Of a stretch of DNA of 31,797 nt, positions 5,460-31,528 are shown piece after piece. The translations under genes were made by a program, and so were the position numbers. This DNA is from Paraspadella gotoi. Taxonomy: Eukaryota > Animalia > Chaetognatha. The stretch spans positions 17,641 through 49,437 of the forward strand of contig JBJCIZ010001226.1 in assembly GCA_051294375.1 (NCBI GenBank), in the 5' to 3' direction. How positions within the stretch are numbered: position 1 is the first letter of the stretch; every line of letters starts with the position of its first letter. Below the pieces are notes generated by a model. It ran no database searches. It had not been told where the DNA came from and was given only the letters and a program-made list of their open reading frames with translations.

Positions 5460-5770
5460 ACCTTTAAATTTCAATTTCACATTCTTACTCCATCCCTATC
5501 TGAATCCTCAACTTGGACCACTATTCCTTTCACTCAATTTCTTTGTTGGCAACTTTGAACTTGGTTTCTCTCTCTCTCTTTCTCACCCTTTCTAAGTTTC
5601 TTACAAACCAAAATTCAATGTTTCACAAATATCAAAACTTTTTGCGCTGTTGAAGGTTCGTATTAAGAGCCGAAACATGTCCGATTTTAACTAATAATTG
5701 TTGAATCTCAATAAAAACTTTTTACTTTGCAAACAAAAAATTGTACTGAATATAAGGGATGCCAAAAAAT
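5460..5770 (+). mobile_element. Second PLE-type hammerhead repeat copy; core mutated
   Basis: 5647-5681 reads CUGUUGA-A-GGUUC(GUAUUAA)GAGCC-GAAACAUGUC; the core A6 is changed to U, so it is probably inactive. Confidence 0.65.
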
Positions 5771-6881: not shown

Positions 6882-7120
6882 GTGGTCTTTTCATACAATT
6901 GAAACATTCTTTGAAATATTTTCCACTTCATTGATAGGGAAGCCAGGTACTCTGGGAGTGAATAAACGGGACTGTGAAAGTCTTGATTGAAAGCTTGCAG
7001 GGACCTGCTATGTCATTATCTTGTAAGAGTGATGGAGGCCTTAAACCACCAAAGTCAGGGGCAAGATAGCTTATTTATTAAATGAATGGATAATTTTTAT
7101 ATTGGTTGTACCAATTTCAT
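6882..7120 (+). repeat. Dispersed repeat 'X', longest copy (fixed 3' end, variable 5' truncation)
   Basis: caaagtcaggggcaagatagcttatttattaaatgaatggataatttttatattggttgtaccaatttcat recurs at 16766-16811, 21926-22017, 29130-29220 and 31392-31528; a diverged 5' part lies at 17738-17870. Confidence 0.9.
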
Positions 7121-7935: not shown

Positions 7936-10900
7936 ATGGTTTTAATTTCAGAAGCATCCATGAATGATACAGAAGTAACGAAAGATTGTTGTATTTGTCA
8001 AAAAGCCAACAATGAATCCATTTCCTGTGAATTTTGCAATTATAACTTTTTTCATCCTGTAAATGAATACCAAAGTAATGGATCTGATGAAGAATTCCAA
8101 ATTACTGACTTTAATATTGAATCTTTACTTGATAATCATATTCTTAGTTATATCTTGATAGAGCATAATTATTCCAAAAATATTCCCTCATTGATTGGTA
8201 AAAGAATTCATAAAATTTCCAATTATCATAAAGACAAACATTCCATTGAGAAAACGAATGTTACTTCTTGTTCTTTTGAAGATATTGTTGACACTATAAT
8301 AAATGATACCGAATTATCTTCTTCTAAAAAAATAGAGCGGTTCCCGCAGAAAAGTCTTTGTATTGATCCAAGTATATTTAATGAAATTAAATTGAATGCT
8401 ATTCCAAATAAAAATTTTCAATTTGTAGTCTGCCAATCTGTTTATCAACATCATTTTCGCAAATTATTAGAAGAAGTAAATAATCGTTGTATTTTTCATT
8501 CAAAAAGTTGTGTTTTCTTGAAAAAAAGTAACACGCTTAAGGCAATTTTTTATTGTGCCGCTCGAGGATGTGAATTGAAATCAGAGGTGATTGTAAACAA
8601 CCAAGGGAAAGCTAGTTTAGAATTTTATTTGAATAAAAAATATGATATTAGAAATTCGAATTCGCACATACTTGTTTCTCATAAACCTGATGTTCCAAAA
8701 TGTAATTATGTAAGACAAAATGAAAGAAAAACCTTATTTAAAGAATTAGAAAACAAAACGCCGAATCAGGTTTATGTATCAATGAAATCCAAATTAACAA
8801 GTGAACATGTTGTAGCAGGAAAGACTTCTTATAGTAAAAGGGTATGCAAAGAACTTGTTTTTGAATCGCGAAAACATATGTATCCAGACGAAAATTGTTT
8901 ATCCTCTCTTATCAAGTTAGCGAATAAAATGGATTATATTCAGAGTATTAATATTCTTCCAAATATAGAAGTAGTTTGTTTTTTGAAATCCTTTTTAAAG
9001 TTAGGAGCGCAGATGTCGTATCATTACACCATTGGAGTGGATGGGACAACTGATTTTGTTTTTGATTTTTTAGGTAAAAGGTTAGAATTATATTCATTTA
9101 CAATAAAAAATCCTATTGTAGGAAATGCTCCGATTTGCATTGCCGCAGGATTTTTATCATGTCAAAATCGTGAAGAAATTACTAGTCTTTTTCAAAAGAT
9201 TAAAAATGCTATCATTGATCATATTCCAAATTTTTGCCCACCACAGGTAGTTTGTGATAAGTCATTCGCTATTATCCGATCTCTTTTAGTTGTGTTTAAT
9301 AATGAGGATCTAACTGCTTATATCTCTAGATTATATCGAGTTGCCTATGGTTTGGAATGCAATTCGTGTAATAAAACCTTAGTTCTTTTATGTGCTCGGC
9401 ATCATTTTCAATCTATTAAAAGAGAACTTTTTAAAATAAAAGCAAATGAAGAATGTAAAAGATTTTACACAATAGTTGCTTCGTTACTTGTATCTTGTTT
9501 AAATTATTCTCATTTTAAATTTGTTTTACATCAAATGATTATTATTGGAACTAGTAAAAAGGATAATATTTATGTAAAAAGAGCTAAGTTAGAAATTAAG
9601 AATTCTTTGAAATCTATTAAGGATAAAAATTTTGAATTAGATAATGATAATCATTTTGAAAAAGAAAACCTTCAGGCCGAGTCAGATTTTGTTAGTTTTG
9701 TTCACAATAATAAAAATCCTTTAAAAGAGTCTGAATTTTATAAAGATTTTCTTGAATTAAAATGTAAAATTCAAGATTCTGACCATGAGGACTCATTTAA
9801 TAATTTGTATTGCCCAAAGTTTATTGAATATTATGGATTATTTTGGGCATCTTTTCCTGTCTATGGAAATATTTTTCGGGGTAAGTTTCGAAAACCGGAA
9901 CAAGTAGACCAACTTGACCGGTTAAGACATACGTCTGTTTTAGACAGGACTAACAATGTTTCTGAACTGCGAAATAAACTGTATAAAGATTTATTACAAA
10001 AAAAAGTTAGATTGGATGTTGCTATTATAAAGTTGGAGGAATATGATCGTTCTCTTTTTATTGAACTATCCGAAAATCTTTTATTTGAAAATATTTCATG
10101 TAGTAAAAAACGAAAACATTTTACTGGCATAAATGCACCCGAAATTTGCAGAAAAAGAAAAATGAATAAGGATTCTTCTTTGATGCTTGAAGATGTTGAC
10201 GTTGCCAATGTAGTTGATGTTTATACTTCTCATAATGATTCTGAATTAATACAGCCAGGAATGATTTGGCCTGCTTTCATGTTTACTTATCAAAATAAAG
10301 TAAATGCTTGTAGCACTATGGCCACAATTAATTTTTTTAGTAACTCTTATTCCATCAATGATATGCTTTTTCAATTTAGAATTTTAAAAAAACCGTATCC
10401 CAGTGATTTTTTTAAAAATCTTGATGAAATGTTATTGTCGGTTTATTTCAATTATTCTCAAAACAATTTATCTGTCAGAACCAATGAAGAAGTTTCAAAA
10501 CTTCACCAATCTTTTATTTCTCATCATGCTTTAGATCACATTTCTGAAAGACAGTTTACTATTGACTCATTATTTCAACTTTTGAATTCGTCTTCTTTAT
10601 CAATAAAAGATATTTATAAATGTGGGCATTGTGATTTCGAATCTGAATTCGTTACCAATCCGCCTTTTTTAACTATTGCTGCAAATCCCATCCTTTCAAT
10701 GTCAGAATGTATAAACATACAATCAAAATCAGAGCCCGTTTCAGATTTTACATGTTCCCAATGTGATTATTTAGGGATTGCTCAATTAGATCAACTTTTT
10801 ATTGATTCGCCAGTGAATTTAATTATACGTGTAGGAAGGGATCGGGATCAACGTGTAGAACAAAGTATTACTTTTTTAGGTCCAGTTGAAATTGAAATTC

Positions 10901-12576
10901 AACTTTCTTTTGGAATAAAAATTGTTGTTGATGGAAAAGAAGTAAATTATAATTTAATGAGCGGTCTTTGTTTTGCTGGTAATGACAACATGGGACATTT
11001 TTATACATTTTCTCCTATTTTAAATAAAAATCAAATTATAGTTTTTGATAATGACAATTATTTTATTCTTAAAACTGGATCTGCTGGTTTTAAAAAGGTT
11101 TCTCGTGAAATTATGTATTTAAATTATGCCAGAGCAAATGATTTGAATCAGTCGTTAATTAATAAACTAAAGTTTAAGCTGCCTCTTTTCGATATTGTGA
11201 AACGCTCCCTTTCAGAGACAGTAAGTTCAGAAAATGAATTTTTAAATAAACATTTTGGCATGTATGTCTGCAATCAGTCAATCTTGTCCAAGCAATACAA
11301 AAGTTTCATGGTTCAATTAGATGCAATTGATCGTTTATATCATCAGTCTCTTCAAGTGTGGTTTGAAGTTAAGTTTTTTTGTGTTTTTTGTTTAAAAACT
11401 TTTATTATCGGTGAAACTATTTCTCCACTTGAAATTATTCAACAATCTTTACAAAGTTGGAAAAACCAATTAAAACAAATTGGTCTTTACGGAATAACAC
11501 AACAAGGCTGCAAACATGCTATTGAAGAAGAAGATTTACAACTTCAAATTACACATTTACCCGAATATATAGTAGTGTTCAATAATTTTTTTGAAGTAAA
11601 TCGTGTTGTAACTCTTTTGAATCAATACTTGTCCAGTCTTAAAGAAATAAACCCAAACTTCAAGGACTCGAGTTATTTCATAGAAAATATTTTTATTAGT
11701 TCAAAAAATGATTTTTTCACACCTAAAAGTAATGAATTTGTAAGCGAGAACACTAGAGAAAAACTTTCAAAATCGGCCATTAGTAGTCTTAGCTCTGTAG
11801 ACAATATTTATTTTATTAAGTTAAGTCTTCCAAAGATGACTGAAATAACTGGTCTTAAACTTGCAGACAGTGAAGCATTGTTGAGCTTCAAAGCATTTGA
11901 TTTTTGGGATTCTTATAAAAGTATTGAAGAGCTGCCTTTAAATAAACTATGTATTAGCCAAACAGTTTTTATTGGGAATCTTATTCTGAGCGAAAATGAA
12001 CAAAAAGAAATTTTAGACTTGAACATTCCTCTGACAACAAAGGTGATTGATTGTTTCTTTCACAGCGTTTCAAAAGTTTTTTTTTTAGAGTTTTCGTATA
12101 TTGGGGCTTCTTCCCATAGTTTCTTGGAAAAATATTCTATACCGTCAATTGTTAATACTTTACTTAACGACTGTCATGACTTTGAACGCGTACTTTTACA
12201 TGAATCAACACAAGATATACTTATTGGAGTTGTAGAGGAAGAAAATACCAAAAGTTTGTTTTCTTACCTTTTTCACTGGGAAAAAAATGTTTTGCTTACA
12301 TATGATCCAATTTCTCCTATTCAACAATCGAAACTTAGTAAGATAGTTGATCAGATTAGGGTTTTATCTTGGCGTAAATCTAAAACCAATGAATATATTG
12401 AACATTTTGATTTAGCTTCGGCTAATCTTGTTCAAAACAAACCGAATCAAATTTTCTCAAGTACTTATATTTGTTTAGTTCCTTTCTTTTTGTTTTTAAA
12501 CAAAAATTTTAGTATGTCTGAAGAAGTAAATCGACAGTTTATTTTGCAGACAATTTTAAATGCAAATAAAAATTAA
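7936..12576 (+). CDS. Mutator (NOF/Rehavkus-like) DDE transposase fused to a USP (C19) protease, a degenerate USP-like segment and an inactive Ulp1-like domain
   Basis: Uninterrupted 1546 codons. MULE motifs: VDGT (D369), VVCDKSFA (D441), CARH (486-489), RTNNVSE (E677). Partial PHD-like CxxC..CxxC..FH and a CxxxxC Zn motif at the N-terminus. USP boxes NKVNAC (C792), GHFYT (H1021), FDND (D1038). Ulp1-like LTTKVIDCFF..YDPI..Q at the C-terminus. The true start may lie in an upstream exon (acceptor tttcag ending at 7951). Confidence 0.88.
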   Translation: MVLISEASMNDTEVTKDCCICQKANNESISCEFCNYNFFHPVNEYQSNGSDEEFQITDFNIESLLDNHILSYILIEHNYSKNIPSLIGKRIHKISNYHKDKHSIEKTNVTSCSFEDIVDTIINDTELSSSKKIERFPQKSLCIDPSIFNEIKLNAIPNKNFQFVVCQSVYQHHFRKLLEEVNNRCIFHSKSCVFLKKSNTLKAIFYCAARGCELKSEVIVNNQGKASLEFYLNKKYDIRNSNSHILVSHKPDVPKCNYVRQNERKTLFKELENKTPNQVYVSMKSKLTSEHVVAGKTSYSKRVCKELVFESRKHMYPDENCLSSLIKLANKMDYIQSINILPNIEVVCFLKSFLKLGAQMSYHYTIGVDGTTDFVFDFLGKRLELYSFTIKNPIVGNAPICIAAGFLSCQNREEITSLFQKIKNAIIDHIPNFCPPQVVCDKSFAIIRSLLVVFNNEDLTAYISRLYRVAYGLECNSCNKTLVLLCARHHFQSIKRELFKIKANEECKRFYTIVASLLVSCLNYSHFKFVLHQMIIIGTSKKDNIYVKRAKLEIKNSLKSIKDKNFELDNDNHFEKENLQAESDFVSFVHNNKNPLKESEFYKDFLELKCKIQDSDHEDSFNNLYCPKFIEYYGLFWASFPVYGNIFRGKFRKPEQVDQLDRLRHTSVLDRTNNVSELRNKLYKDLLQKKVRLDVAIIKLEEYDRSLFIELSENLLFENISCSKKRKHFTGINAPEICRKRKMNKDSSLMLEDVDVANVVDVYTSHNDSELIQPGMIWPAFMFTYQNKVNACSTMATINFFSNSYSINDMLFQFRILKKPYPSDFFKNLDEMLLSVYFNYSQNNLSVRTNEEVSKLHQSFISHHALDHISERQFTIDSLFQLLNSSSLSIKDIYKCGHCDFESEFVTNPPFLTIAANPILSMSECINIQSKSEPVSDFTCSQCDYLGIAQLDQLFIDSPVNLIIRVGRDRDQRVEQSITFLGPVEIEIQLSFGIKIVVDGKEVNYNLMSGLCFAGNDNMGHFYTFSPILNKNQIIVFDNDNYFILKTGSAGFKKVSREIMYLNYARANDLNQSLINKLKFKLPLFDIVKRSLSETVSSENEFLNKHFGMYVCNQSILSKQYKSFMVQLDAIDRLYHQSLQVWFEVKFFCVFCLKTFIIGETISPLEIIQQSLQSWKNQLKQIGLYGITQQGCKHAIEEEDLQLQITHLPEYIVVFNNFFEVNRVVTLLNQYLSSLKEINPNFKDSSYFIENIFISSKNDFFTPKSNEFVSENTREKLSKSAISSLSSVDNIYFIKLSLPKMTEITGLKLADSEALLSFKAFDFWDSYKSIEELPLNKLCISQTVFIGNLILSENEQKEILDLNIPLTTKVIDCFFHSVSKVFFLEFSYIGASSHSFLEKYSIPSIVNTLLNDCHDFERVLLHESTQDILIGVVEEENTKSLFSYLFHWEKNVLLTYDPISPIQQSKLSKIVDQIRVLSWRKSKTNEYIEHFDLASANLVQNKPNQIFSSTYICLVPFFLFLNKNFSMSEEVNRQFILQTILNANKN

Positions 12577-15777: not shown

Positions 15778-16853
15778 TAAAATTTTACAATTTAATCATT
15801 AAAAAAGTCAGTTTAGCATTTTTTTCTTTTTGGTTATGAAGTTCAAATTAGTTTGCTACAATCAGTAATTTTTTTAATGTTAGTTCAAATTCTTTTTTTC
15901 TTCTTTGCAATCATTATCTTGTTTCCTACCAATGTAATGTACTATTGTGTTTCTATTTGATTTGAAAGATAATTATAATTGTATATTTCCTTGGTGTTTT
16001 TGTGAGCTTCAAGGCCGAGTTTAAAATCGTAAAACATGATACTTAAAGCTCGACATAAATGTATAGTTAATTATTACTTATTGATTAGACCAGTAATACA
16101 CACATTTGATTTGGAACACTCGAGTTTAAAAAATCATCTCTGAAACCACTCGCCCAATTATGATTAAATTTATACACATTGATTCATTATTTTTTAATTT
16201 AAATTAAAATTATTCTTATGGAGTGTCTGGAGTTTCAAGTTATATTTAAAGTTATATTTTTTTCACATGTGTACCTTATTACATGTAGATTATACACGCA
16301 CTTGCTTAAATCAGCAGGGCGTCAACCCAAGTCCATTAAATTGCGAGAGGCGTGCGTTAGTGCGTAACGATAGGACGATGGTTTTTTTATCAGATGAAAA
16401 ATTTGTCTAAGTTTAAGTAGACCCTCTTAAAGAGAAGAAACGGACAAATAATTTTACGAGTGTGAATGATTATAAGCTAAATTCTGTTTTACCGTTTCTG
16501 ACAGTCAATAACTCATTTTTATGTCACCAATGTTCTCCTAAACTGTTTACCAAACTGAAACTCATTGTTTGTTACAATATCTGTACTGCTTATTAAACAA
16601 TCTTCGATGTGTTGTTTACTGGTTAGTGAAGGAAAAAACAGACCAAGACTGGCTAGATTTTTAGTTTTTCAAGTTCTCATAGTATAGAAAGTTCAAAGCG
16701 AGGGGTACGATATTGGATTAATTTTACTTTCGCCGACGGGGTTAATGGTTAAATTTTACCATTTTATTTATTAAATGAATGGATAATTTTTATATTGGTT
16801 ATGCCCAATTCAGAATAGTCGGTTTGTATTTCAATGCGAGTGCAGAGAATGAA

Positions 16854-18591: not shown

Positions 18592-18641
18592 TATGGCAAC
18601 AGCCGGGTTGCCTGTGATGCCCATTGGGATGGGGCATCTCA

Positions 18642-18728
18642 CTGTTGGCTTTGGGGGCTTCCGACCCTCAGTGACGCCTCCAGTCACTGGCGCGGTTACC
18701 CTAGGACGGTCTCGCTTTGCCAATACAG
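18642..18728 (-). ncRNA. Type-P5 twister ribozyme candidate (copy 1); predicted cleavage U/A between 18698 and 18697
   Basis: CUGUAUUGGC(P5) AAA GCGA(P2') GA CCG(T1') UCCUAGGG(P1) UAA CCGC(P2) GC(T2) CAGUGAC..GUCACUG(P3) A GGG UCGGAAGC CCC(P4/L4) C AAA GCCAACAG(P5'). All twister elements are in permuted order; P2 has one C-A mismatch. Confidence 0.75.
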
Positions 18729-19088
18729 AGGGAAGTCGTTAGGACTGTGGATGGAACACTACGCCTGGGATGGTGTGTTCCCCCTCTGAGCCAATGTATT
18801 TGGCTGAAGGATGGTGGACGTGAGGCGGTGTGAATATACCGCCACAGGATCCCCGGGTCAAGACATCACTCAGGTTCCTCAAGCCTGAGAGGTGTCTGAC
18901 AAGACTGTTACCATAGTGGGAGAGAGAGAGCGCGAGTTGTGGGAGCAGAGGCGTTTGTCGTAGCGTACCCCAGGGGCATAGGCGTTTGTCGTAGCATACC
19001 CTGAGAAGGTTGCATGTTCGATAGTAGGGCTCACCACTTATGGCAACAGCCGGGTTGCCTGTGATGCCCATTGGGATGGGGCATCTCA

Positions 19089-19175
19089 CTGTTGGCTTTG
19101 GGGGCTTCCAACCCTCAGTGACGCCTCCAGTCACTGGCGCGGTTACCCTCGGACGGTCTCGCTTTGCCAATGCAG
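19089..19175 (-). ncRNA. Type-P5 twister ribozyme candidate (copy 2); predicted cleavage between 19145 and 19144
   Basis: Same fold; L4 reads UUGGAAGC, which keeps T1 pairing with CCG through a U-G wobble; P1 region is UCCGAGGG. Confidence 0.72.
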
Positions 19176-19389
19176 AGGGAAGTCGTTAGGACTGTGGATG
19201 GAACACTACGCCTGGGATGGTGTGTTCCCCCTCTGAGCCAATGTATTTGGCTGAAGGATTATAATATGAAGCCTTCCATATAGCCTGTCTAATGTGTAGA
19301 CCCTCTTAAACCCATAATCATGGATGTTCAATAAAACTACATGGCAACTGTAGCTTACAGTGTAGGCAGATTTATGTAATTGATAATTG

Positions 19390-21150
19390 AGCACTAAACT
19401 ATTCAACCTTTACGCTAAACTACTCAACCCAAACCCTAAACTACTCAAACCTAACCAAAACCCTAAACTACTCAACCTTAACCAAAACCCTAAACTACTC
19501 AACCAAACCCTAAACTATACCTGTCAACCAAAACCCTAAACTACTCAACCTCTAACCAAACCCTAAACTACCTTCCAAACCCTAAACATAAAACCTTAAA
19601 CTACCCCAACCCTACTAACCACCAAAACCCCTAAACTACTCAACCTAACCTACTCAACCAACCCGACAAACTATTTAACCCAAAACCCTAAACTACTCAA
19701 TCCTAATCCTACTCAACCCTAACCTAAACTACTCAACCCTTACCCTAAACTACTCAACCCTAACCCTCACCTAAACTACTCAACCCTAACCAAAACCCTA
19801 AACTACTCAACCCTAACCAAAACCCTAAACTACTCAACCCCCCACCGTAAACTACTCAACCCTAACTCGAACCCTAAACTACTCAACCCTAACCAAAATC
19901 CTAAGCTACTCAACCCAAACCAAAACTATTCAACCAAAACCTAAACTACTACCCAAAACCTAAACTACTCAATCCTAATCCTACTCAACCCTAACCCTAA
20001 ACCACTCAACCCTTACCCTAAACTACTCAACCCTAACCAAAACCCTAAACGACCCAACCCTAACCCTAAACTACTCAACCCAAACCCAAAACTATTCAAC
20101 CCAAAACCTAAACTACTCAATCCTAATCCTACTCAACCCTAACCCAAAACTACTCAACCCTAACCAAAACCCTAACCAAAACCCTAAACTACTCAACCCT
20201 AACCCAAAACTATTTAACCCAAAACCTAAAACTACTCAATCCTAATCCTACTCAACCCTAACCCTAAACTACTCAACCCTTACCCTAAACTACTCAACCC
20301 TAACCAAAACCCAAAACGACCCAACCCTACCCTAAACTACTCAACCCAAACCCTAACTACTCAACCCAAACCCTAAACTACTCAACCCCCCACCGTAAAC
20401 TACTCAACCCTAACTCGAACCCTAAACTACTCAACCCTAACCAAAATCCTAAACTACTCAACCCAAACCAAAAACTATTCAACCCAAAACCTAAACTACT
20501 CAACCCAAACCCTAAACTACTCAACTCTAACCCTAATCTACTCAACCCTAACCAAAACCCTAAACTACCCAACCCTAACCCTAAACTTCTCAACCCTAAC
20601 TGTAAACTACTCGACCCTAACCCAAACCCTAAACTACTCAACCCTAACCAAAATCCTAAACTACTCAACCCAAACATAAGACTATTCAACCCAAAACCTA
20701 AACTACTCAATCCTAATCCTACTCAACCCTAACCCTAAACTACTCAACTCTAATCCTAAACTATTCAACCCTAACCCTAAACATTAACAACACCCACTAC
20801 TCCTAACCCTAAATTGACAATAACATTAACTCTAAACTGAACTTAACCCTAAACTACTCATCCCTAACCCTAAACTACTCAACCCTAACCCTAAACTACT
20901 CAACCCTAACCGTAAACTACTCAACCCTAACCCTTACCCTAAACTCCTCAACCCAAAACTACTCAATCCTAATCTTAGTCAACCCTAACCCTAATCTCCT
21001 CAACCCTAACCCTAAACTACTCAACCCTAACCCTAAACATTAACAACACCAACCTACCCCTAACCCTAAAATTGACAATAACGTTAACTCTAAACTGAAC
21101 TTAACCCTTACTCAACCCTAAGCCACCTTAACCCTAACCCTACTCCTACT
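19390..21150. repeat. Telomere-like satellite built from CCCTAA plus an ACTACTCAA spacer
   Basis: Dozens of units of ccctaaactactcaaccctaa, with variants and longer recurring blocks. Confidence 0.95.
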
Positions 21151-21477: not shown

Positions 21478-21770
21478 TTTTTATGTTTGAGATAGAAAAT
21501 GTATTTTTTTAAGAGTTTTATTAAGAAACAAATTTCAGATATGATTCGTCTTTAATGTAAGCCTTCGTCAGCGCAAAAACGAATTGATTTGTGAAACAAA
21601 TATTTTCACAGACTTCGAAGTTTAAATAGAGAGTCTGTGAAAATATTTGTTTCACACATCAATTCGTTTTTGCGCTGACGAAGGCTTACATTGAAGCCGA
21701 AACATGTCCAAAATTTATGTATCTTAATAAAACTTGTAAACAAAATACATTTTCTACCTCAAACAAATAA
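21478..21770. mobile_element. Inverted pair of PLE-type hammerhead repeats (arms about 137 bp, 17-nt spacer)
   Basis: 21478-21614 is the reverse complement of 21632-21770; the left arm has a degenerate minus-strand hammerhead (GAAU in place of GAAA). Confidence 0.85.
21675..21708 (+). ncRNA. Minimal type I hammerhead ribozyme (PLE-type)
   Basis: CUGACGA-A-GGCUU(ACAUUG)AAGCC-GAAA-C-AU-G-UC; intact core and palindromic stem III. Confidence 0.82.
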
Positions 21771-21925
21771 ATGAATGGAAAAACAATATTTTTATGTTAT
21801 ATTTTTTAACGGTTAGCAATTGGATTAAGGGTGATCACTGATGTTCTCATGATCAGGGATTATGAGTAGTTAGGGATTAGGGGTAGTTAGGGTTAGGGGA
21901 TGTTTCGAAATAAAATTTGTAATAT

Positions 21926-22017
21926 AAAGCCTGTCCAAAGCCTGTCCAAAGTCAGGGGCAAGATAGCTTATTTATTAAATGAATGGATAATTTTTATATT
22001 CGTTGTACCAATTTCAT
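21926..22017 (+). repeat. Repeat X copy with an 11-bp tandem duplication at its 5' junction
   Basis: aaagcctgtcc occurs twice, followed by the shared X 3' end. Confidence 0.9.
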
Positions 22018-25026: not shown

Positions 25027-25807
25027 GTGGCGGTATATTCACACGCCTCAGTCCACATCGTTCAGCCTCCCCAAATCATTGTCAGAGGGGATCACACAAT
25101 CCAGGCGTAGTGTTCTATCCACAGATCGTAATGACTTGCGTTGTGGCAACAGAGCCGACAGTCCTACCCGGTACGCGCCAGGACTGGATGCGTCAACTGA
25201 GGGTCGGAACGCCCCAACAGCCCAACAGTGTGTATCGATGCGCCGCTATTCCCAATGGGCATTCACAGGCACCCGGCTGTTTCCATAAGTGGTGAGCCCT
25301 ACTATCAACACGCCAACCTTCTCAGGTACGCTACGAGACAAACGCCTATGCCCTGCCTGACTTCGGTCAGCACTATGGAAAACGCTATGCACTGGGGTAC
25401 GCTTACGACAAACGCTATGCCCCACCGGGCTCCTCTCTTTCTCCCTATGGTGCAGTCTGTAACCTCTCAGCCTGTGAGGAACATGAGTCGATGTAATTTT
25501 TGGTGCGAGGGGATCTGTGCCGTATACAGTTCACACGCCAGCTCACGTCCACATCGTTCAGCTAACATCCATTATGGCTCAAGAGGGGAAAGACCAAAAC
25601 CCGAACCACCACCCACCTAATCCCTCCCCCAACGGCGTAGTGTTCCATCCACAGTCCTAATGACTTCCCTCCTGCGTTGGGCAAGCGGAACGTCTCTAGG
25701 GTTAACTCGCCTCAGTGATGGATCGTCACTGAGGGTACGGAAGCCCCAAAGCACACAGTGAGCATGCCCCAATCCCAATGGGCATCAAGGAACCGGTCTG
25801 TTGCCAT
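25027..25807 (+). mobile_element. Second array of repeat Z (about 1.6 units, indel-rich), inverted relative to 18593-19258
   Basis: Colinear with the reverse complement of Z; degenerate twister motifs at about 25136-25228 and 25672-25758; ends at the same gttgccat. Confidence 0.85.
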
Positions 25808-27399
25808 TATGTAGTCCCATTTGTAATAGAATATTATCGTATGAAATTATTTAATAGTTACTAAGTCGCGTACCAATAAACCCATAAATCATTATCTGTA
25901 AAAGTCTTCGAAGTTTTCCGATCCCGCGTTTCCCATCTCGCGTTGATCGAAAGATTTTCTCCTTAAAGTTTAGAAACGCATCCTGCTAATTTATACTGGC
26001 ATTGAATTTAACTGTCATGGAATTTCTTTTTATATTTGACCTTCGCTTGTTTTCTCTTCCATCGATAACCTCTGTTTTTCGATCGTTTCTCTGCGACGTT
26101 TCGCGATCTCCCGTGAATTTATTCTGGTTGATTGGTTCTGGATATGACTCAACGCGTTCGCTCGATCTTGGAGGACCTCGTTTGGCGTTTCCGCAAAGAA
26201 AAATATTCTCGGTTCCTTCGTATTTTCATTTTCGTTCTTTCTTTCCTTTCATTTAATCTCACTGGACCGTCTTGTCACCCGCTTTTCTCTGGGGGTTCAC
26301 TCAACCAGCTCGACAATGACCGTTTATGAGCATGAAACCGTCTATGTCAGCTATCTGATGTGTGTTCATTTCTGCTTTTGCGTCCGGACTTGTTTCGTGT
26401 TCTTGAGAACTAAGAATTTGATCTGGTCCGTTTGACCCTAGAAAATTGTTTTTACCTGGCGTTCTGCATGAAAGTCCTCTGGTGATTTTCCTTGTTTCTT
26501 CTATAGGTCTGAAATGGTATCAGTTTCATCAGTGTTCTTCTGAGTCGAATTTCACTTCTCCACGTTTTCCAATGGAATGACTTTTAGTTTTGCTTCGGAC
26601 TCAAAAATTTGGAGGAATTTTCGTCACTGGCTTGCCTCTCTCTGAATTATCCCTCTGAAAAGATATGGAACTGACATTCTCTCCAGCTTTCTCTCAGGAC
26701 GATGACAAAAGCTCTGCGCATCACTCTTCCCCGGTGGAATTATTGGACATTCCGCGTTGCGTTTCTCGATCAAAACGTGAACGAACGTTAAATCGTCGCT
26801 TCCCCGTCTTCTTATATCACTCTGGCTGGCAAATGATTTGAAATTGACGCTGATTGTTCGTTAATTAAGGGGAAGTTTGAAATTTTCGACTTGGATAAAA
26901 TTTTAAGATGAGATCGAGTGTCTCTTCTCAAAGATGTAGTTTGAGCTATACTGTCGCTCGCTTTAGAAATGTTTGATCTAGCTTGTTTTATTGATGTCTT
27001 CATGGTACTTATGCTCTGTTCGTCAATGTGTCTATCTTCCACGCTCCCACTGAATAATCGCTTGGTGATTTTCCGATCTACGATATCTAAGTTGGCTAAA
27101 GAAGTTTTCAGGTCGTTGGTTCGACCGGACCCTTTCCTGACTGAGTAGCGAGAAGTTTGCAAAGATATTCTCGGTTTTATCATAATTCGCCGCATCATCA
27201 AAAGTTAAAAGGCACTGACTATAGTTCAAGCTACTTGATACAAAACTATCATTTCTCTGAAAATTCTTCTATGATCTTTTCAGACGCAGACACAATATTT
27301 TGAATCAGGCATTGTAAAAACATGCATAGCGTAAGATACATTAAAATTTTATACTCAATCAAACATGCTTGTACGAGAATATTTAGTAAGAAGAATTTC

Positions 27400-28971: not shown

Positions 28972-29240
28972 GCGGCCATTGGTGCCGGAGGCAAGTCATT
29001 TGCCTCCCAACCAAAGGTCCCCGGGTTCTAGCCCGGTGGTCGCCTAGCAGTTAGGAGGGACGGCGGCTTAACCCTCCTGTACATGGTTGATAAAAATTGA
29101 TCCGCTTATATGAACGGTTCTGTCACTAAGCTTAAACCACCCAAAGCCTGTCCAAAGTCAGGACAAGATAGCTTATTTATTAAATGAATGGCTAATTTTA
29201 TATTGGTTGTACCAATTCATATAACAATATTATTGGTCTC
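28972..29240 (+). mobile_element. tRNA-Gly(CCC)-derived SINE, with repeat X inserted at 29130-29220
   Basis: Acceptor stem GCGGCCA/TGGTCGC (28972-29043), A box TGGTGCCGGAGG, anticodon loop CT-CCC-AA, B box GGTTCTAGCCC; body shared with 16854-17030. Confidence 0.8.
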
Positions 29241-31391: not shown

Positions 31392-31528
31392 AAAGCTTGC
31401 AGGGACCTGCTATGTCATTATCTTTAAGAGTGATGGAGGCTTAAACCACAAAGCCTGTCCAAAGTCAGGGCAAGATAGCTTATTTATTAAATGAATGGAT
31501 AATTTTTGTATTGGTTGTACAATTTCAT
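31392..31528 (+). repeat. Repeat X copy
   Basis: Aligns with 6990-7120. Confidence 0.9.

Follow-up and report, generated by a model that had tools for sequence, protein, structure and literature searches.

The window analysed here is a 31,797-nt stretch of a contig of the chaetognath Paraspadella gotoi (assembly GCA_051294375.1, contig JBJCIZ010001226.1, positions 17,641 to 49,437 of the forward strand). Its minus strand carries two copies of a predicted twister ribozyme, spaced by 447 nt (the unit length) within direct repeats. The copies sit one per terminal repeat in a small, high-copy, non-coding LTR-like element, which is present in the window at two loci:

18592..18846, minus strand: downstream terminal repeat, 255 nt; minus-strand ends TGTGGC...GCCATA, placed by a depth step and loose contig ends
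18847..19038, minus strand: non-coding interior of 192 nt; starts with AG-TGG where the upstream repeat ends, primer-binding-site-like
19039..19259, minus strand: upstream terminal repeat, its 5' end short by 34 nt; 99% identity to the downstream repeat
25027..25808, plus strand: second locus, indel-ridden, with both repeats; P1 regions ...CTCTAGGG and ...TCCTACCC

Read data were available as contigs from several runs, two of which (X9 and X10) are guessed to be RNA. In run X1, 9169 contigs aligned to one element unit, with summed depth falling from 1.2-2.9 million to 0.6-1.0 million past 18846, and 109 + 37 contigs had loose ends at 18846/18847. The depth step and loose ends indicate a family composed of a repeat (255 nt), an interior (192 nt) and a repeat, with fixed ends, and rule out a long tandem array as its layout. 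An earlier note on this DNA had spoken of tandem units; there are two twister copies per element, but these are the terminal repeats of a single LTR-like element. The joint from 19038 to 18592, considered as a sign of circles, is simply the repeat-interior junction. TGG starts 2 nt past the end of the upstream repeat, as in a primer binding site, and about 35 nt within 18996-19038 seem to resemble the 3' half of tRNA-Trp from eukaryotes; in searches by Rfam, phage BLAST and viral patterns, this primer-binding-site-like stretch gave no tRNA match. The purine run ahead of the downstream repeat is short, no target-site duplication is clear in the flanks of the second locus (the first is truncated), and no hammerhead match was found within the element.

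Plant LTR retrozymes, as described in the available part of PMC4918200, are similarly non-coding, with one ribozyme per terminal repeat, a unit RNA between two cuts, a primer-binding-site-like start of the interior and, probably, solo repeats. The present element differs from them in having a twister instead of a type III hammerhead, in its smaller size (255 + 192 + 255 nt) and in residing in a genome that carries Penelope-type hammerheads. Elsewhere in the window, a degenerate 1.6-kb array of AACCCT-containing 21- and 27-nt units lies 130 nt from the element (19394-21038), with an opposite-strand remnant near 21855-21900; a C/T-rich tandem array (15-nt unit, about 41 copies) spans 775-1384; and 7936-12576 (plus strand) is a 1546-aa open frame lacking a Pfam match, residues 150-750 of which a feature search grouped with MULE transposases at very high confidence.

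The type-P5 twister ribozyme was reportedly described by Roth et al. in 2014. Between 18696 and 18712 the minus strand reads A-GA-CCG-UCCUAGGG-UAA, and the fold around this segment can be laid out as follows:

18654..18715, minus strand: putative type-P5 twister core, copy 1 (strict descriptor plus a compensatory P3 pair)
18645..18723, minus strand: P5 helix closing the copy 1 fold, 18723-18719 with 18645-18649, 5 bp, open P5
18715-18713 with 18694-18692, minus strand: P2 of copy 1, 3 bp plus an A.C mismatch at 18712/18695
18711-18710, minus strand: conserved G-A of copy 1 before T1, at the twister consensus position
18709-18707 with 18663-18661 in L4, minus strand: T1 of copy 1, CCG/CGG, 3 bp by complementarity
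18699..18706, minus strand: P1 segment UCCUAGGG of copy 1, an 8-nt palindrome; as a monomer 2 bp plus CUAG, or 3 bp plus a UA two-base loop
18698-18696, minus strand: UAA of copy 1, the cleavage strand of the twister consensus
18697..18698, minus strand: predicted cleavage site U^A of copy 1, by homology to the twister consensus
18691-18690 with 18658-18657, minus strand: T2 of copy 1, GC/GC, 2 bp by complementarity
18689-18669, minus strand: P3 of copy 1, 7 bp
18667-18665 with 18656-18654, minus strand: P4 of copy 1, 3 bp, with an 8-nt L4
19101..19162, minus strand: putative twister core, copy 2; P1 UCCGAGGG, a single G.U wobble in T1, cleavage predicted between 19145 and 19144

Copy 2 differs from copy 1 in its P1, UCCGAGGG, and by a C-to-U change in a T1 strand. 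At 18724-18725, most family copies carry bases other than those of the window, and these lengthen P5; the change is near-fixed in the contigs. A strict type-P5 descriptor, drawn from the Rfam consensus after the motif had been seen, matched the window twice (18715-18654 and 19162-19101), compared with 0 matches when the window was shuffled 100 times (block-wise, by dinucleotide). An Rfam search gave no RF02684 match for the fold, the gathering score not being reached, and the best score was a partial RF03160 (twister-P1) match of 15.2 bits (E 4.2). Compared with the type-P5 twister as presented in the available parts of its sources (RF02684; PMC5408937, PMC10085705), the fold has the same strand order, G-A before T1, U^AA, T1, T2, P2, P4/L4, optional P3 and open P5, but differs in its 8-nt palindromic P1 in place of a stable hairpin of 12-26 nt, its CCG/CGG T1, the A.C mismatch in P2 and a score below the Rfam thresholds. 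We regard the fold at 18715-18654 as probably a type-P5 twister ribozyme, for which cleavage is predicted.

The earlier note had proposed that P1 is minimal and self-complementary over 8 nt with terminal wobbles, and this is borne out at 18699-18706 in plus-strand numbering. As a monomer (2 bp and a 4-nt loop) UCCUAGGG folds at +2.1 kcal/mol, and as a duplex of two copies it pairs along its whole length of 8 nt, the outermost pairs being U.G wobbles, at -11.2 kcal/mol. The note's caveat that copy 2 has a weaker palindrome also holds, as UCCGAGGG forms a self-duplex at -6.4 kcal/mol and a duplex with the P1 of copy 1 at -6.6 kcal/mol. In folds without pseudoknots, a competing hairpin (-2.5 kcal/mol) masks a T1 strand and the cleavage-site U. 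A nested, strand-swapped fold of two copy 1 chains is modelled at -53.2 kcal/mol against 2 x -19.9, about 13 below two monomers, and that of copy 2 at -48.4 kcal/mol, about 9 below, with T1 and T2 omitted and P4 one base off register on both sides alike. In cis, the net gain is roughly -4.7 to -6.9 kcal/mol when both copies are intact; for the mismatched pair at this locus it shrinks to -0.1 to -2.3 kcal/mol. Such a strand swap is structurally possible in these models; energies alone are no proof that it occurs. The palindrome by itself is weak evidence, as 16 of 256 four-base loops are self-complementary by enumeration, and its chance becomes 1 in 4 if a C-G inside the loop is required for a two-base loop anyway.

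The reading to which we give about even weight is that cleavage would be best in the dimer, two copies of one transcript being predicted to cut through an 8-bp P1 duplex between them. Read-through transcription would yield an RNA with both repeats, whose copies would exchange P5, P2 and T1 partners, each 5' half completing the 3' half of the other, and whose palindromes would form P1 as an 8-bp duplex. Two cuts would then free a 447-nt unit whose ends would be kept side by side for ligation. A circle or a solo repeat would have only the weak monomer P1, such that cutting would be slower, not absent. This reading is supported by the unstable monomer P1 and the competing hairpin, and by a swapped fold that is nested and lower in energy. 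It is weakened by the mismatch between the copies at this locus and by the local monomer fold, which would be transcribed first and must open.

A tentative alternative, to which we give about a third of the weight, is an ordinary monomer ribozyme that cuts during transcription with a minimal P1 hairpin (U.G, C-G, C-G and a UA two-base loop), the palindrome being incidental, with a chance of 1 in 4 once the C-G is required. Several published observations, each taken from the available part of its source, favour this alternative and weaken dimer-preferred cleavage. Twisters without P1 cleave at a near wild-type rate, and the env22 twister has a P1 of just two Watson-Crick pairs (PMC5408937, where the dimer in the rice twister crystal is regarded as an artefact); in natural type-P1 twisters, the length, stability and defects of P1 were without effect on the extent of cleavage (PMC11662667, the CHiTA study, covering type-P1 twisters only); and CUAG belongs to the known two-base loops with a closing C-G pair, as does CUUG (PMC4666379). 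Against it, excerpts of PMC8501958 describe P1-less cleavage as inefficient and P1 composition as influencing activity, and the P1-less tests, as far as these sources describe them, used type-P1 RNAs rather than P5 permutations.

To follow P1 across copies of the element, we considered alleles with a share of at least 1% in one or more of four runs over positions 18671-18704, with P1 conservation assessed at 18701-18704 (18705-18706 lay outside the 40 best-supported rows). Run X13 was left out of the counts (it covers 18694-18775 only, with two differences hidden). Shares are summed contig depth rather than copy counts and carry no haplotypes. The CUAG palindrome was retained in at most 91% (X1), 99.4% (X5) and 99.5% (X9) of summed depth. 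The earlier note had suggested a tabulation of P1 across all genomic copies; by contig depth, most copies keep the palindrome and a majority of non-palindromic loops was not seen. The X1 loop alleles were CUUG (2.6%), CUCG (2.5%), CGAG (2.1%) and UUAG (1.6%), and P1-loop alleles summed to 0.56% in X5 and 0.47% in X9. All four minor alleles retain the C3.G6 pair, and three of the four break the centre of the duplex. P1 variants at the assessed positions were confined to loop bases, with none at G6 or in the P1 stem. Variability per base in the P1 loop exceeded that of the core and was 3 to 14 times below that of the P3 loop. In X1, variation affected 3 of 4 positions in the P1 loop, 3 of 7 in the P3 loop and 2 of 23 among those that are paired or catalytic (Fisher p 0.013 for the P1 loop against this last group). 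One contig of run X11 (n=1) keeps the P1 loop of the window and has lost 4 nt from its P3 region. U4G and A5C, if linked, would yield the palindrome CGCG. The ratio of their shares differs between runs (1.2, 2.0 and 2.8, against 0.74-1.03 for the P3 pair), meaning that the two do not track each other, and copy 2 in the window has U4G without A5C.

This allele pattern appears to fit the monomer hairpin, with variation at loop bases and none at G6 or the stem. It weakens dimer-preferred cleavage in that the X1 alleles keep C3.G6 while mostly breaking the duplex centre, and in that U4G and A5C do not rise and fall together. It is nevertheless compatible with a dimer, because each minor P1 variant pairs with itself (-5.8 to -7.5 kcal/mol) and ribozyme activity may be unnecessary for the spread of an LTR element. 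Conservation of the palindrome in the family and the lower variability of the P1 loop relative to the P3 loop lend support to dimer-preferred cleavage.

The same alleles bear on whether the fold is active at all. An A.C mismatch near the active site, a weak P1 and a competing hairpin could leave it inactive in both forms and carried along in a young repeat; the missing Rfam call and the preference of pseudoknot-free folds for the off-pathway hairpin speak for this. Over the assessed positions of the four runs, however, UAA and T2 had no allele of 1% or more, and P3 shows a compensatory replacement of A-U by G-C (18674/18684) in three runs, with share ratios of 0.74, 0.84 and 1.03. Natural twisters also tolerate P2 defects, according to the available part of PMC11662667, and we consider inactivity very improbable. 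No T1 or T2 covariation was seen within the element family.

For comparison, we collected phage and prokaryote P5 twisters by pattern scans with a fixed T1. A type-P5 filter retained 41 of the 215 loci fetched; these yielded 26 rows and, with two duplicate parses removed, 24 distinct P1 sequences, about nine of which are close relatives. These P1 sequences are folded hairpins of 12-26 nt, often with UUCG or GNRA-like loops, and none of the 24 has a palindromic centre. That all 24 are 12 nt or longer and fold counts against the monomer alternative for the element. A metagenome scan for P5 twisters with the element's T1 gave 28 matches, all of which fail in P2 and none of which is like the element, and a loose viral scan gave 1 passing match among the at least 120 matches listed. 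Three candidates for comparison were set aside: L103/L205, proposed as a phage twister with an 8-nt P1, is better parsed with a 20-nt hairpin; L215, proposed as another, fails the stricter filter; and L202 (from a genome scan with 9 matches) is a plausible P5 twister with a 12-nt P1 that did not pass the stricter P5 filter. At 486-540 of L205 (the same contig as L103), a phage type-P5 twister has P2-GA-T1 duplicated inside its P1 hairpin, making two registers possible.

A different picture emerged in Naiad elements. We viewed by eye 12 of the 54 consensus tails in File S5 of PMC8557442, and 5 of these 12 have a P5-like core with P5, P2, T1, T2 (AC/GU or CC/GG), P3 and P4. A palindrome follows T1 in all five cores (UAGCUAGCUA, U-GGCGCC-G, UGAUGCAUCA, UGGAGCGCUCCA and GGUGCGCACC; the core names, inferred from file order, are Mgal, Bpla, Mphi, Scon and Mmer), and a second palindrome of 7-10 nt comes after the first. 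One core shares the U-6mer-G-UAA layout of the window twister. The centres of the palindromes differ (CUAG, GCGC and UGCA), which argues, at the level of sequence, for selection on self-pairing. Palindromic P1 sequences thus occur in 5 of 5 Naiad cores against 0 of 24 in phages and prokaryotes, or 3 of 3 against 0 of 14 (p 0.0015) when roughly collapsed, the five cores being related bivalve elements. Searches of the Naiad consensus file with L4 patterns returned no cores beyond four of those five. Six other Naiad tails share a different conserved motif, which is not a twister; they belong to oyster, ark-clam, pearl-oyster and acorn-worm elements (names inferred), and the motif contains a variable 10-nt palindrome. 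The word 'twister' has 0 occurrences in the main text of PMC8557442 and of bioRxiv 10.64898/2026.07.22.740005.

A further type-P5 twister family, unrelated to the first, is also present in the window (T2 AC/GU, T1 UGG/CCA). Its copies are scattered, many of them truncated, and it has hallmarks in common with the Naiad-tail twisters:

31429-31468, plus strand: second putative twister family; Rfam 25.9 bits, below threshold
7027-7060, 21936-21955, 29130-29162 and 16764-16800: further copies of the second family

Its P1 reads AGGCCU at 7036-7041 and AGGCU at 31437-31441, a palindrome in one of the two complete readings. The Naiad tails resemble the twister of the LTR-like element in the P5 permutation and the palindrome after T1, but have two palindromes and a longer P1 region and are Penelope-like, coding elements rather than LTR elements. 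The contrast between Naiads and phages or prokaryotes raised our estimate for an effect of having two copies from about a third to about a half. Together with AGGCCU in the second family it supports dimer-preferred cleavage, which is weakened by the relatedness of the five Naiads and by their having two palindromes against one here. The recurrence of a palindrome at this place in 5 of 5 Naiad cores counts against an incidental palindrome in a monomer ribozyme.

LTR elements and retroviruses have palindromic dimerisation sites. The palindrome here might likewise pair RNAs for another purpose, as a kissing site for genome dimerisation or packaging by a helper LTR element or by holding the repeats together, with the monomer doing the cutting. 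The LTR-like architecture and the precedent of such sites agree with this, as does the circular fold of the unit RNA (-154.4 kcal/mol; 61% of bases paired; z -3.6 relative to 40 shuffles), in which 5 of the 8 P1 bases are mostly unpaired. The position of the palindrome exactly in P1, beside the scissile bond, both here and in the non-LTR Naiads, makes another purpose improbable in our view.

Minimal hammerheads are another precedent for dimer-preferred cleavage, and Lunse et al. reportedly described some that cleave as dimers in 2017. The earlier note had drawn the parallel to such hammerheads of Penelope-like elements with ACAUGU, and three are present in the window:

2682-2717, 5647-5682 and 21675-21709, plus strand: minimal type I hammerheads with a palindromic ACAUGU in stem III

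A long hairpin (21581-21665) precedes the hammerhead at 21675. According to the available parts of PMC6765202 and PMC7229834, the minimal hammerheads of Penelope-like elements and amphibian retrozymes share with the element a short, palindrome-capped helix and at least two copies per transcript; they differ in ribozyme class and in that stem III is needed for catalysis, whereas the twister P1 is reported to be dispensable. In the same portion of PMC7229834, axolotl hammerhead monomers with 1 bp and a palindromic loop were 6% cleaved and those with 2 bp and a tetraloop 22%, both motifs cleaving much better as dimers. The 22% cleavage of the latter as monomers weakens dimer-preferred cleavage, and a graded effect of copy number would be expected here, as in the axolotl hammerheads.

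A strictly obligate dimer is the extreme of the dimer-preferred reading and accounts for the smaller part of its weight. What stands of the strand-swapped dimer in the earlier note is its structural possibility (-53.2 against 2 x -19.9 kcal/mol) and the recurrence of palindromes in Naiads; a strict need for it finds no support. The note's claim that the twister would cleave only multimeric transcripts is likewise unsupported, given the dispensability of P1 elsewhere, within the available parts of the sources given above, and minor variants that fit the monomer two-base-loop hairpin. We hold it unlikely that animal retroelements have repeatedly converted the P5 twister to obligate, strand-swapped dimerisation, in parallel to the hammerhead of Penelope elements, such that in the LTR-type retrozyme described here only the two-repeat precursor would be cut and the unit circle spared.

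The impression that a dimer-cleaving twister is undescribed agrees with our search: neither a natural one nor a twister LTR retrozyme was found in the full-text literature searched, which lies largely outside subscription journals, and the available parts of PMC7761336, PMC6765202, PMC10085705, PMC4918200, PMC7229834 and PMC13725137 mention no natural dimer-cleaving twister. The element resembles an LTR retrozyme in which a twister replaces the hammerhead, an arrangement not found in that literature. If true, a natural twister with a need or a preference for a second copy would be the first of its class in the literature searched. Two unrelated ribozyme folds would then have reached the same copy-counting trick in retroelements, and this would explain the conservation of P1 despite its dispensability in vitro.
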